From assembly GCF_013122565.1 (NCBI RefSeq), contig NZ_CP053258.1: a stretch of 64,000 nucleotides of DNA. One strand, 5' to 3'. The translations under genes were made by a program, and so were the position numbers. Shown here one piece after another: positions 3,294-59,681 of the stretch (its first letter is position 1; every line of letters starts with the position of its first letter). Origin of the DNA: Escherichia coli (GTDB lineage Bacteria; Pseudomonadota; Gammaproteobacteria; Enterobacterales; Enterobacteriaceae). Below the pieces are notes generated by a model that saw nothing but the letters and a program-made list of their open reading frames with translations, searched no databases and had not been told where the DNA came from.

Positions 3294-3401
3294 TCAAGAA
3301 AGGCACCTGAGGCTGAAACGGTTAATGGCGAGATAATTTGCGGAAAGTGCAGATGATGAAAAGAAAAATGCCGGATGACACAAAGGTCATCCGGCATGAC
3401 A

Positions 3402-5276
3402 TCAGGAAACCAGCAGCTGGTTCATACGACGAATAAACAGGTTCGGATCTTCCAGCGTGCCGCGTTCTGCCAGCAGCGCCTGATCCAGCAGCAGTTCTAC
3501 CCACTCGCTGAACTTGGCTTCATCTTCAGTCTCTGCCGCACGTTTCACCAGTACGTGATCCGGGTTCAGTTCGAAGATGTATTTCACTTCTGGCACTTTC
3601 TGGCCCGCCGCAGCGAACAGTTTCGCCATCTGGGTGCTCATTTCATCCGCGTCGGTCGAAACGATCGCTGGCGTATCGGTCAGACGGTGAGTGAGACGGA
3701 CATCTTTCACGCGCTCGCCGAGCAGGGCTTTCACACGGTCGATGAACGGAGTCAGTGCTTTCTCCGCTTCTTTCGCGCTCTCATCAACTTCGTCAGCCAG
3801 TTTTTCCAGCGACTCGTCAACTTTAGACACCGACTGGAACGGTTTACCGTCGAACTCAGTCAGATAGTTCATCATCCACTCATCGATGCGGTCGGAAAGC
3901 AGCAGAACTTCGATGCCTTTCTTACGCAGCAGTTCCAGGTGCGGGCTGCTCTTCGCTGCCGCATAGCTGTCTGCAGTGATGTAGTAGATTTTCTCCTGCC
4001 CTTCTTTCATGCGGGAAACGTAGTCTTCCAGAGACACGGTCTGCGCAGAAGAATCGGTATGAGTAGAAGCAAAACGCAGCAGTTTGGCGATCGCTTCCTG
4101 GTTAGCGAAATCTTCTGCCGGACCTTCTTTCAGTACCAGGCCAAACTGTTGCCAGAAGGTCTGGTATTTTTCCGCGTCGTCTTTGGCCAGTTTTTCCAGC
4201 ATTTGCAGCACACGCTTGGTCAGCGCATTGCGCAGGTTACGCGTTACCGTGCTGTCCTGGAGGATTTCACGGGAAACGTTCAGCGGCAGATCGCTGGAGT
4301 CAATCAGACCACGCACGAAGCGCAGATAGTTCGGCATGAACTGTTCTGCGTCGTCCATGATGAACACACGCTGAACATACAGTTTCAGGCCGTGTTTATG
4401 ATCACGGTTCCACATATCCCACGGAGCCTGGGACGGGATGTACAGCAGGCTGGTGTACTCCTGCTTACCTTCAACACGGTTGTGGCTCCAGGTCAGCGGA
4501 TCGTTAAAGTCGTGGGCGATGTGTTTGTAGAACTCTTTGTACTCTTCATCGGTGATTTCCGACTTGTTACGAGTCCACAGCGCCTGCGCTTTGTTAATTT
4601 TCTCCCAGGAGATAACGGTTTCGCCGTCTTTCTCTTCGCGTTTTTCGATCTCTACCGGCAGCGCGATATGGTCGGAGTATTTGCTGATGATGGAACGCAC
4701 GCGCCAGTCATCGAGGAACTCGTCTTCGCCTTCACGCAGATGCAGGGTGATTTCAGTACCACGATCTTCTTTGGTGATGTCGGCAACGGTATATTCACCT
4801 TCGCCAGCCGATTCCCAGAACACGCCATTTTCTGGTTTTTCGCCTGCCGCGCGAGTACGCACGGTCACTTTGTCGGCCACGATAAACGCAGAGTAGAAAC
4901 CAACACCAAACTGACCGATCAGCTGGCTGTCTTTCGCCTGGTCAGAACCCAGGGATTCGAGGAATGATTTGGTACCGGATTTAGCGATAGTCCCCAGATG
5001 GTCGATCACTTCGTCGCGGGTCATCCCCACGCCGTTATCGGAGATGGTCAGCGTGCGCTTGTCTTTATCGAAAGAGACACGAACGCGCAGTTCGCCATCA
5101 CCTTCGTACAGGTCCGGGTTAGAGAGCGCACGGAAACGCAACTTGTCCGCCGCATCGGAGGCGTTAGAGATAAGCTCACGCAGGAAGATTTCTTTATTGG
5201 AATAGAGAGAATGGATCATCAGGTGCAGAAGCTGTTTCACTTCTGACTGAAAACCGCGAGTTTCTTGTCCTTTCAT
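3402..5276 (-). CDS. htpG: Hsp90-family molecular chaperone HtpG
   Basis: 624-aa [45 protein letters not shown]... recognised as HtpG. Confidence 0.97.
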
Positions 5277-5327
5277 GTAGGTCTACCTCAATAATGCCAT
5301 TTTAAGGTTAAAAACAGGATGAGGGAG

Positions 5328-5356
5328 AGATGGGGACAAGGGAGAATAATTTCAAG
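5328..5356 (-). promoter_or_regulatory. sigma32 (heat-shock) promoter of htpG
   Basis: Minus strand reads CTTGAAA-14 nt-CCCCATCT about 30 nt upstream of the htpG start, matching the sigma32 consensus CTTGAA/CCCCATnT. Confidence 0.7.
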
Positions 5357-5380
5357 CGAGAGCAGGTGATCCTGCTCTCG
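5357..5380 (-). terminator. perfect 10-bp stem hairpin (cgagagcagg/cctgctctcg, loop tgat) downstream of recR, abutting the htpG promoter -35
   Basis: Inverted repeat read directly; lies between recR stop and the htpG promoter; flanking U-richness is moderate. Confidence 0.5.
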
Positions 5381-5385
5381 TTTGC

Positions 5386-5990
5386 TTAAAAACGAATCTT
5401 ATGACGCCCGGCAAGGGAATGCGACAACGTGGTGCCGTCGACCATTTCCAGCTCGCCGCCAACCGGTACGCCATGAGCGATTCGGCTGGCTTCCACGTCA
5501 TATTGCGCGCAAAGCTCGGCAATGTAGTTAGCGGTAGCTTCACCTTCAACCGTGGGATTGGTGGCGAGGATCACTTCAGTGATTTTTTCCTCTGCCAGAC
5601 GCTGTTCCAGACGATCAAGCCCGATATCATCCGGACCGATGCCGTCCAGCGGTGACAGATGCCCCATCAACACAAAATAACGACCTGAAAACTGCCCCGT
5701 CTGCTCAATGGCGTAAATGTCCGCCGGACTCTCCACCACGCAGATTTGACCGTTTTCCTGACGACGCGGATTCGAACAGATGTTACAGACTTCCTGTTCG
5801 GTGAAGGTGCGGCAATCGGCGCAGTGGCCGATTTCCGACATCGCCCGGGTGAGCGCCTGCGCCAGACGCATCCCGCCGCTACGATCGCGCTGAAGCAGCG
5901 TGAACGCCATACGCTGCGCCGACTTCGGGCCAACGCCCGGCAGACAGCGCAGTGCTTCCATAAGCTGTGTTAACAGCGGGCTGGTTTGCA

Positions 5991-5991
<1 letters not shown>
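5386..5991 (-). CDS. recR: recombination protein RecR
   Basis: 201-aa [33 protein letters not shown]... with C4 zinc-finger cysteines; start overlaps ybaB stop. Confidence 0.96.
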
Positions 5992-6335
<344 letters not shown>

Positions 6336-6372: not shown

Positions 6373-8304
6373 TCAAATGGGGCGGATACTTTCTTCATCC
6401 AGCTCCGCATCGAAAAACCGACGCAGGGTCTGAATATTATTATCCGCAATAATGGACTCGCGCGCCTGCGCAAGTTTTTCTTCGTATATCGCCTGACGCC
6501 ACTCCAGCGGCGTACGCACCGCGGGATTATCATCTTCAACGATAGTCAGTTCAACCGTTGAACCTTTTAACATGCTCAACGCTTCAGCCAGTTTTTGCTG
6601 TGCACCGCGGTTGTTCAAATGCCGCTGAGAGGAGCGCAAATGCAGACATACTGCGTTATCACTCTCCTCTTTCCAGGCATTTAACGCCACCTGTTCGACC
6701 AGTTTTGGTAGCGAAAGTTGACTCACCTGAGCCGCCCACGCGTCGCGCTCAATGGCTTCTGCCGCCAGCTTCGCCGCCAGTTCCGGCGTTTTTTCATGTT
6801 CCAGCGCTTTTTTCAGCGCCTTCGGCGTGGCGACCACTTCTTTTTGCTGCATCACTGGAGTGGTCGCCTTCCAGCGATACGCTTCTTTTTTAGCTGGCGC
6901 TTTTTCCAGCGCCGATGGCACCGGACGCGCCTGAACGCGATCTGTGACCGAAGCCAGTCTTTCCAGCGCAGCGTTATTCACCGGCCGCGCGCGGGTAGCG
7001 GCTGCCGGTTCACTCTTTTTTGCTTTGGTTGCTCCCTGCACGCGCTGCAACTGCTGGCGCGCCGCCAGCACCTGGCTGGTGGTTTCCGGGAGCGGTACAG
7101 TCGGTGCCTGCTGCGGCGCTGATTGCGGTTGCGGCGGCACCTGGGTTGGGGTCATTACTGCCGTTGGCGCGACGGGTGCAAAGGACTGTCGTGGCACTTC
7201 TGGCTCAGGCAGCGGCATACGCGGATGGAATGCCAGCGCGCGCAGCAGCGTCATCTCAACGCCCATGCGGCGGTCCGGCGCATACGGTAATTCTTTGCGA
7301 CCAATCAACAGCGTCTGATAGTAAAGCTGAATATCCGTCGGCGGTATGGTGCGCGCCAGTTCACGCATCCGCAGCTCGATGGCGGCCATGTCGTTGCCAA
7401 GTGCAGCAGGCGAAAGTTGTACCATCGCAATACGATGCAACAGACCGAGCATTTCCACCAGCAACGCTTCCCACTCGATACCACGGGCAGCGGCTTCATT
7501 AATCAGCGCCATTACGCGCTCGCCGTTGGCCTCGACCATCGCTTCAACCAGCGACAGCGCCTGATCGTCGTCAAGCGTACCCAGCATCGTACTGACCGCC
7601 TGGGTTGAAACCTGGCCGTCACCGCTGGCAATCGCCTGGTCGGTCAGACTTAAGGCATCTCGCAGGCTGCCTTCAGCGGCGCGTGCCAGCAATTGCAGCG
7701 CCCGCGGCTCGTGAGCGATATGTTCTTCGTTGAGGATGTGCTCAAGCTGATGGCGAATTTGCTCGACATCCAGCGCCTTGAGATGAAATTGCAGACAGCG
7801 TGACAAAATCGTCACCGGCAATTTCTGTGGATCGGTCGTCGCCAGCAGAAACTTAACGTGCTCCGGCGGCTCTTCAAGGGTTTTTAACAGTGCGTTGAAG
7901 CTGTGGCGCGACAGCATATGCACTTCGTCGATGAGATAAACTTTGAAACGACCACGCGCCGGAGCGTACTGGACGTTATCCAGCAGGTCGCGGGTATCTT
8001 CAACTTTGGTGCGCGAGGCGGCGTCGATTTCAATCAGATCGACAAAGCGCCCCTGCTCGATTTCACGACAGTTATCGCACACGCCGCACGGCGTCGCGGT
8101 AATGCCGGTTTCGCAGTTTAGCCCCTTCGCCAGCAGTCGGGCGATAGAGGTTTTTCCGACGCCACGGGTACCGGAAAAAAGATAAGCATGATGAATACGC
8201 CCTAACGACAAGCCGTTCGCCAGTGCGGTCAGCACATGTTCCTGGCCGACGACGTCAGCAAAGGTTTGTGGGCGCCATTTTCGGGCTAAGACCTGATAAC
8301 TCAT
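6373..8304 (-). CDS. dnaX: DNA polymerase III tau subunit (gamma produced by -1 frameshift)
   Basis: 643-aa ORF MSYQVLARKWRPQTFADVVGQEHVLTALANGL... with Walker A GTRGVGKTS. Confidence 0.97.
   Translation of the reverse strand: MSYQVLARKWRPQTFADVVGQEHVLTALANGLSLGRIHHAYLFSGTRGVGKTSIARLLAKGLNCETGITATPCGVCDNCREIEQGRFVDLIEIDAASRTKVEDTRDLLDNVQYAPARGRFKVYLIDEVHMLSRHSFNALLKTLEEPPEHVKFLLATTDPQKLPVTILSRCLQFHLKALDVEQIRHQLEHILNEEHIAHEPRALQLLARAAEGSLRDALSLTDQAIASGDGQVSTQAVSTMLGTLDDDQALSLVEAMVEANGERVMALINEAAARGIEWEALLVEMLGLLHRIAMVQLSPAALGNDMAAIELRMRELARTIPPTDIQLYYQTLLIGRKELPYAPDRRMGVEMTLLRALAFHPRMPLPEPEVPRQSFAPVAPTAVMTPTQVPPQPQSAPQQAPTVPLPETTSQVLAARQQLQRVQGATKAKKSEPAAATRARPVNNAALERLASVTDRVQARPVPSALEKAPAKKEAYRWKATTPVMQQKEVVATPKALKKALEHEKTPELAAKLAAEAIERDAWAAQVSQLSLPKLVEQVALNAWKEESDNAVCLHLRSSQRHLNNRGAQQKLAEALSMLKGSTVELTIVEDDNPAVRTPLEWRQAIYEEKLAQARESIIADNNIQTLRRFFDAELDEESIRPI
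7010..7021 (-). promoter_or_regulatory. dnaX: dnaX programmed -1 ribosomal frameshift site (slippery A AAA AAG, then -1 frame stop)
   Basis: Minus strand reads GCA AAA AAG AGT GAA encoding ...KAKKSE...; heptamer A AAA AAG at 7015-7021; shifting -1 gives AAA AAA GAG TGA, so the gamma product ends at TGA 7010-7012. Confidence 0.9.
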
Positions 8305-14663: not shown

Positions 14664-14687
14664 TACATACATTTGTGAATGTATGTA
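14664..14687. promoter_or_regulatory. AcrR operator: 24-bp palindrome TACATACATTTGTGAATGTATGTA in the acrR-acrA intergenic region
   Basis: Palindrome read directly; corresponds to the known AcrR binding site. Confidence 0.85.
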
Positions 14688-24024: not shown

Positions 24025-24414
24025 ATGCTGGTTTCTTGCGCAATGCGGCTTCACTCGGGCGTTTTTCCAGATTATGCTGAAAAATTACCTCAGGAAGAAA
24101 AGATGGAAAAAGAAGATTCATTTCCCCAACGCGTCTGGCAAATCGTCGCCGCTATTCCCGAAGGCTATGTAACCACTTACGGTGATGTGGCGAAACTGGC
24201 GGGATCGCCCCGCGCCGCGCGCCAGGTGGGCGGTGTGTTAAAGCGTCTCCCCGAAGGCAGCACCTTACCCTGGCATCGGGTGGTTAATCGCCACGGCACA
24301 ATTTCGCTAACCGGACCGGATTTACAGCGTCAGCGACAGGCATTACTGGCAGAAGGTGTGATGGTATCGGGAAGTGGGCAAATTGACTTGCAGCGTTATC
24401 GCTGGAACTACTAA
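24025..24414 (+). CDS. atl: DNA base-flipping alkyltransferase-like protein Atl (YbaZ)
   Basis: ORF 24004-24414; internal start gives MLVSCAMRLHSGVFPDYAEKLPQEEKMEKEDSFPQRVWQIVAAIPEGYVTTYGDVA... (129 aa). Confidence 0.9.
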   Translation: MLVSCAMRLHSGVFPDYAEKLPQEEKMEKEDSFPQRVWQIVAAIPEGYVTTYGDVAKLAGSPRAARQVGGVLKRLPEGSTLPWHRVVNRHGTISLTGPDLQRQRQALLAEGVMVSGSGQIDLQRYRWNY

Positions 24415-24436
24415 CCCTCTCCGGGCGGAGAGGGTT
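24413..24436. terminator. bidirectional hairpin between convergent atl and ybaY
   Basis: Perfect inverted repeat ccctctcc-gggc-ggagaggg (extendable by flanking A/T pairs) in the 30-bp gap between the two stop codons. Confidence 0.7.
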
Positions 24437-24444
24437 AACTTCGC

Positions 24445-35557: not shown

Positions 35558-35584
35558 TGCCGGATGCGGCTTGAGCATCCGGCA
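35558..35584. terminator. 10-bp perfect hairpin (tgccggatgc/gcatccggca) between convergent queC and fadM
   Basis: Inverted repeat read directly in the 51-bp gap; REP-like hairpin likely acting as bidirectional terminator. Confidence 0.6.
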
Positions 35585-35994: not shown

Positions 35995-36047
35995 AGCGCA
36001 ATAACCTTACGTTGTTGTTATAAGAACTGTTATAAGTACAGAGGTCA

Positions 36048-38493
<2,446 letters not shown>

Positions 38494-59634: not shown

Positions 59635-59668
59635 ATGCGGCAAACGTCGCATCTGACCAGATGCGACG
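59635..59668. terminator. hairpin between convergent yajL and thiI
   Basis: gtcgcatct-gacc-agatgcgac perfect stem (59646-59667) with an overlapping gatgcg/cgcatc repeat; no long T-run. Confidence 0.5.
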
Positions 59669-59681
59669 TAAAAACCACAAA

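Follow-up and report, generated by a model that had tools for sequence, protein, structure and literature searches.

The recR-htpG spacer and its hairpin

We analyzed a window of 64,000 nt of Escherichia coli DNA (the whole stretch under study), in which dnaX (8304..6373), ybaB (6335..5991), recR (5386..5991) and htpG (3402..5276) all lie on the minus strand. The dnaX and ybaB genes were placed from the list of open reading frames, and the recR coding sequence, which ends in a TAA stop codon at 5388..5386, was placed from that list, the sequence itself and the annotation of K-12 and other E. coli; htpG is the gene served by the σ32 promoter described below. The ybaB stop and the recR start share one base (TGATG, 5989-5993, minus strand), an arrangement expected to couple their translation. 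We found the 3.6-kb stretch around the recR-htpG spacer to be 99.0% identical to K-12 MG1655 and 94% identical to E. albertii at the DNA level, with a 100% match to E. albertii for the RecR protein. The spacer itself was found in 5,424 of 5,426 complete E. coli genomes, and K-12 is identical to the window across the hairpin and both promoter elements.

The spacer holds a hairpin at 5357-5380 (minus strand), with a perfect 10-bp stem and a 4-nt loop in the recR-sense RNA: 5' arm CGAGAGCAGG (5380..5371), loop AUCA (5370..5367) and 3' arm CCUGCUCUCG (5366..5357). Read on the coding strand, the recR stop codon is followed by GCAAA (5 nt) and then by the hairpin, whose final base touches the htpG -35 element CTTGAAA (5356..5350), a spacing of 0 nt. 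Hence, a stable, GC-rich stem-loop lies on the sense strand just 3' of recR, as is required of an intrinsic terminator. The first-pass annotation had described a 10-bp hairpin flush against the -35, and both its coordinates and the zero spacing are exact; the sequence it quoted, CGAGAGCAGG-TGAT-CCTGCTCTCG, is correct for the plus strand and is the complement of the relevant RNA. The pairing of the stem can be extended to 14 nt with one mismatch, and it then includes CTTG of the -35.

The hairpin has a free energy of -17.8 kcal/mol; for the surrounding 71-nt RNA the folding energy is -23.8 kcal/mol (z = -5.3), a stability that none of 200 shuffles reached. We found about nine loci with perfect hairpins of at least 10 bp in the 64-kb window, relative to 0.3 expected from block shuffles, and the recR hairpin motif is single-copy in the window and was matched in none of 100 shuffles. 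An Rfam scan at E ≤ 10 returned only two sub-threshold chance matches (E = 7-9), and with one copy in the window the hairpin does not belong to a REP-type repeat. Elsewhere in the window there are seven more perfect 10-11-bp hairpins (14664-14687, 24412-24437, 35558-35584, 36040-36064, 53609-53632, 53647-53673 and 59644-59669); that at 14664 is AT-rich (TACATACATT/AATGTATGTA), that at 35558 is REP-like (TGCCGGATGC), and the pair within 53609-53673 is 15 nt apart.

Two further features of the fold were considered and set aside. The inner stem and loop (5359-5372, minus strand, GGAUCACCU) share 9 identical nt with the 3' end of 16S rRNA, and we take this likeness to be a coincidence because the match is limited to Escherichia-like sequences in the alignment. 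The MFE fold also predicts a lower stem in which UUUUAAGC (5384..5391, minus strand, including the recR stop codon) pairs with GCUUGAAA (5357..5350), and the TRS supplement (PMC10687069) draws a structure with the same lower stem. We rejected this lower stem as a conserved feature because it is absent beyond Escherichia-like sequences, being lost in Citrobacter and Erwiniaceae on reading the alignment, and has no covariation support.

The htpG promoter consists of the -35 CTTGAAA (5350..5356, minus strand), which adjoins the stem and sits where the U-tract of a terminator would be, and the -10 CCCCATCT (5328..5335), with a 14-nt spacer between them. We found no mismatch to CTTGAAA-N14-CCCCATNT, and this is the sole such site in 5250-5800. 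Hence, the stretch 5356..5328 has the form of a σ32 promoter, that is, CTTGAAA and CCCCATNT separated by 13-15 nt and 5' of a heat-shock gene. Among 34 aligned species, the promoter's CTTGAA and CC.A do not vary, and the spacer between -35 and -10 is 13-15 nt in 33 of 33 species. Corroborating this assignment, ChIP-exo located one predominant RpoH site at htpG (PMC9104697). The htpG promoter is a classical example of its class, and the element adjoining the hairpin resembles other σ32 promoters in its exact consensus match and its invariance across genera; the hairpin, in contrast, is no part of the promoter; its place is 5' of the -35, and other families lack it there.

A Salmonella htpG reporter fusion begins 45 nt upstream of the AUG (PMC5137417), and together with the promoter geometry this places the htpG start probably at 5320..5321 (minus strand), 45 nt 5' of the ATG at 5276 and about 7 nt past the -10. 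The hairpin would then span about -59 to -36. The first-pass annotation had also suggested that the hairpin could form the 5' boundary of heat-shock transcripts; this fails because the hairpin is upstream of the -35 and the probable htpG start lies about 36 nt downstream of it. No further σ32-like motif was found upstream of the hairpin (5250-5800 scanned). A consensus promoter and terminator scan missed both the promoter, because it is not of the σ70 type, and the hairpin, because it has no T-run.

Published recR 3' ends and conservation of the stem

Two K-12 data sets locate the 3' end of the recR message. The Term-seq of Adams et al. (2021) lists a 'primary' recR 3' end at 495042(+), ending ...CUCUCGCUU-3' (PMC7815308 supplementary file 1); its context, ...CCTGCTCTCGCT-T-GAAATTATTC, puts the end 3 nt past the stem and within the -35, at window position 5354. 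We verified the convention of that table (50 nt, the end nucleotide and 10 nt) on its ChiX entry. The TRS data give a 'Primary' recR terminus at 495044-45 in a cluster of 495038-495053 (PMC10687069 supplementary files 4-6), and show the same recR hairpin. For this terminus R, which is 1 minus local read-through, is 0.927, 0.975 and 0.951 in three data sets (PMC10687069). Hence, only about 3-7% of the local signal passes the recR terminus.

Transferred from K-12, the cluster defines a recR 3'-end zone at 5343..5358 (minus strand), with modes at 5354 (Term-seq) and 5352-5351 (TRS), so that RNA 3' ends in vivo fall 3-6 nt past the stem. The first-pass annotation had held that the hairpin probably terminates the dnaX-ybaB-recR transcript and had named 3'-end mapping of recR as the check. 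The published K-12 maps support the claim, because in both the primary 3' end lies just past the stem, with ends at the hairpin and no free read-through into htpG. We are highly confident that a sense-strand RNA hairpin forms the recR 3' end; these are steady-state 3' ends, in which release of polymerase and trimming of RNA are indistinguishable.

Conservation was measured on 80 loci from Enterobacterales and Vibrionaceae, obtained by a RecR-based scan that took one genome for each species. recR is followed by htpG in nearly all Enterobacterales. Among 33 species of Enterobacteriaceae and Erwiniaceae, nearly all have a perfect stem of 7-13 bp whose end is 0-3 nt ahead of TTGAA, with 29 species showing a gap of 0 or 1 nt. 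The stem sequences are unrelated between genera (CGAGAGCAGG, CGGAGGCCGC, CAGGAGGAC, ACGGCACGT, GCCGGCGTT and GCTGATGTT). In an alignment of 20 Enterobacteriaceae, nine of the ten pairs have changed on both sides in a compensatory manner, and standard pairs make up 94.5% of cells relative to 72.8% after shuffling and 40-55% with slid partners. This count is limited to Enterobacteriaceae because the Erwiniaceae stems are two columns out of register in the two-family alignment; Erwiniaceae are covered by their per-species stems. Hence, the conservation across Enterobacteriaceae for which the first-pass annotation had asked is found in the pairing.

The strand on which the stem acts was addressed in two ways. 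We found 18 G·U cells and 3 A·C cells, an excess that points to RNA of the recR-sense strand. Similarly, in 22 of the 33 species the better fold is that of the sense strand (Wilcoxon p = 0.007, with regions fixed by annotation alone); the species are related, so these strand statistics are indications rather than probabilities. The wobble and strand-folding tests agree, and they indicate that selection acts on the recR-sense RNA stem and not on the DNA sequence.

Outside the two families, Yersiniaceae, Pectobacteriaceae, Hafniaceae, Morganellaceae and Budviciaceae have a hairpin near recR and the same σ32 promoter 30-90 nt away. Canonical terminators, with a hairpin and a U-run, follow recR in Vibrionaceae, Morganella, Arsenophonus and Acerihabitans, and the three of these that were scored (Morganella, Vibrio and Acerihabitans) reach +17 to +43. 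Enterobacterales whose hairpin is unfused to the promoter mostly have no U-tracts (Serratia, Dickeya, Pectobacterium and Edwardsiella). From this distribution we infer an ancestral recR terminator whose spacer was compacted in Enterobacteriaceae and Erwiniaceae until the stem met the -35. Two of the loci have unusual spacers: Vibrio fluminensis carries tandem repeats of about 48 nt (GGATGCGGGATATGGGAACGTTCGGCTGTCGCCTCACTTAC...) after the recR terminator, and Serratia oryzae has a 278-nt spacer downstream of recR with an additional long inverted repeat that separates the promoter from htpG.

These data bear on three other readings of the palindrome. That it is a chance palindrome or a member of a repeat family (REP/BIME or the end of a mobile element) has nothing in its favor beyond its palindromic form; covariation, with compensatory change keeping the pairing in many genera, the shuffle expectation of 0.3 hairpins per 64 kb, and the single copy in the window without an Rfam match refute it, and we regard it as practically excluded. 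It is also very unlikely that the palindrome is a DNA-level element of the htpG promoter, either a cruciform or a palindromic protein site at -59 to -36, that alters access of the σ32 holoenzyme. Such an element would fill the upstream region of the usual α-subunit contacts, and in 31 of 33 species TTGAA lies at a constant 30-31 nt from the recR stop, in contrast to the 42 to 90 nt between the -10 and the ATG. However, the pairing is conserved while the sequence is free to vary, which argues against a protein site; the preference for G·U over A·C is strand-specific and RNA-like, unlike what is expected of duplex or cruciform DNA; and a 10-bp stem is short for cruciform extrusion. Furthermore, the promoter is the same in Yersiniaceae, Pectobacteriaceae, Morganellaceae and others, where no hairpin adjoins it. 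Since sister families use the promoter in this way, the effect of the hairpin on htpG promoter access that the first-pass annotation had raised appears unsupported on comparison of the sequences.

A terminator for the antisense (plus) strand, or one that works both ways, is similarly improbable. On the plus strand the stem is followed by TTTGCTTA, which gives a score of +9.2, above that of the sense orientation, and the CAA(A/T) that supplies this T-run is conserved in Enterobacteriaceae; the conserved CAAA could just as well serve a sense terminator as its upstream A-tract, however, and the wobble pairs favor the sense strand. In addition, PMC7815308 lists no antisense 3' end at 4949xx-4951xx, and a σ70-type consensus scan found no promoter-like site on either strand in 4500-6200. 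The sense-strand RNA hairpin at the end of recR is the reading that we carry forward.

Termination or trimming at the recR hairpin

The recR hairpin was compared with canonical intrinsic terminators, namely that of htpG (3368-3397) and those of recR in Vibrio and Morganella. It shares with them a GC-rich 10-bp stem with a 4-nt loop at about -18 kcal/mol, a position on the sense strand just past the stop codon, an A-rich lead-in, and 3' ends a few nt past the stem. It differs in that it has no U-run; its tail is the CUUGAAAUU of the promoter. The 7-8 nt after the stem are not a U-rich tract (the tail CUUGAAAUUA has 4 U in 10 and a T-tail score of 1.2), and the d'Aubenton-Carafa-type score is -23.5, relative to +30.1 for the terminator that follows htpG in this window. 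The htpG terminator (minus strand) is a perfect 12-bp hairpin, ATGCCGGATGAC-CTTTGT-GTCATCCGGCAT, followed by TTTTTCTTTTC, and is a canonical intrinsic terminator; it begins 4 nt after the htpG stop codon (3404..3402) and agrees with the published primary htpG terminus at K-12 497034-35.

We consider it an even call that the recR hairpin is a non-canonical, U-poor, Rho-independent intrinsic terminator. By this mechanism, RNA polymerase leaving recR would pass through the GC-rich palindrome into the A/U-rich CUUGAAAUUAUU; the stem would fold, and much of the transcription would end 3-8 nt further on, over the htpG -35, with polymerase released at the hairpin without Rho. The same stem would guard the recR mRNA from 3' exonucleases. 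As an outcome, htpG would be insulated from upstream transcription and would stay σ32-dependent. In Enterobacteriaceae and Erwiniaceae, the spacer would have been compacted so that the -35 hexamer takes the place of the U-tract. Consistent with intrinsic termination, 10 of the 12 nt past the stem are A or U and 5 of the 8 nt ahead of it are A; Dar and Sorek (2018, PMC6061677) give an upstream A-tract as a mark of intrinsic terminators that is absent from Rho-dependent ends. The low local read-through, the 3' ends 3-6 nt past the stem and the canonical terminators after recR in other lineages also speak for it, as does the lack of a listed Rho-termination region at the locus (PMC7815308). Against it count the missing U-tract with its negative score, the failure of the terminator scan to call the hairpin, the excess of C over G downstream and the U-less unfused hairpins of other Enterobacterales; in addition, the stem starts 5 nt past the stop codon, and a terminating ribosome would therefore cover its 5' arm.

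The main alternative, which we hold to be a lesser though serious possibility, is that most polymerases pass the hairpin and the htpG promoter and that PNPase and RNase II trim the RNA back to the protective stem-loop. Rho would load on C-rich RNA and terminate transcription in the htpG leader or early coding sequence, or the read-through RNA would be cleaved. Dar and Sorek (2018, PMC6061677) describe such a class: its stem-loops are stable and have no U-tract, the 3' end follows the stem immediately, and C outnumbers G downstream. In sequence and 3' ends, the recR hairpin resembles this class, since it is a stable U-less stem-loop with a precise steady-state 3' end right after it (just 3 nt past the stem in PMC7815308), its terminator score is negative, and C exceeds G downstream. 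The 70 nt past the hairpin (5287..5356, minus strand), which comprise the promoter and 5' UTR, would give the read-through RNA a Rho-loading-like composition: they hold 20 C and 7 G, a skew of 0.48 (measured on the near-identical loci L002 and L003) relative to a 99th percentile of 0.38 for 70-nt strand windows. There is a second explanation for this C-richness, because the same bases are a σ32 promoter and C-richness is the ordinary look of one; the C-over-G bias of the htpG promoter and 5' UTR is similar in most Enterobacterales loci. Trimming would also fit the unfused hairpins of Serratia, Dickeya, Pectobacterium and Edwardsiella, which are likewise without U-tracts, and the weak expression of the recR operon, Rho-dependence being reported as anti-correlated with expression in PMC6061677.

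On the other side, the recR hairpin differs from this class in the A-rich tract ahead of its stem, which is said there to be missing from the class, and only about 80 nt of untranslated RNA would be available to Rho ahead of the htpG start codon. PMC7815308 lists, in its bicyclomycin data (supplementary file 2), no Rho-termination region between 4948xx and 4951xx, which counts lightly because the transcripts of htpG itself would hide the signal. A literature search for bicyclomycin with recR or htpG found nothing relevant. Overall, we favor intrinsic termination over Rho-dependent termination with processing; under either, the recR message has its 3' boundary at the hairpin. U-poor sites have been proposed, in PMC6061677, to be leaky intrinsic terminators with Rho as back-up, and on our analysis such a mixed state is quite possible at recR.

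Implications for the recR operon and htpG

Two genome-wide studies (PMC7815308 and PMC10687069) had already tabulated the recR 3' terminus with its hairpin. As a gene-end signal the hairpin is ordinary, the promoter beside it is of the classical σ32 kind, and the general class is well described. Only the following is new: the stem is maintained by compensatory change in two families, it is fused to the -35 at a fixed distance, and the -35 replaces the U-tract.

A bolder reading is that the -35 hexamer has a dual use, both as a promoter element in the DNA and as the weak-hybrid tail of the recR terminator RNA, so that termination is coupled to htpG initiation. Nothing supports such coupling, and we think it highly improbable. 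If it were true, each termination event would park a polymerase on the htpG promoter, perhaps occluding it transiently; alternatively, the polymerase would stay on the DNA after termination and re-initiate once it gained σ32, thereby feeding the promoter. Transcription of a replication and repair operon would in that case be coupled to Hsp90 expression, and the fixed 30-31-nt geometry from stop codon to -35 in two families would be selected rather than inherited.

The result is at the level of annotation and adds no novel class of element: a structure-conserved hairpin, fused to the σ32 promoter, lies between the recR operon and htpG. For clones in which the htpG promoter serves to sense burden or heat, it is relevant that the promoter does not include the 24 bp ahead of the -35, which are part of the recR terminator. 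The locus is also a natural example in which the U-tract has been overwritten by a -35 and there is yet a sharp 3' end, with 3-7% local read-through. It is therefore a convenient test case for how far E. coli RNA polymerase depends on a U-tract, and for the drift that has been proposed between an intrinsic and a Rho-backed mode of termination.
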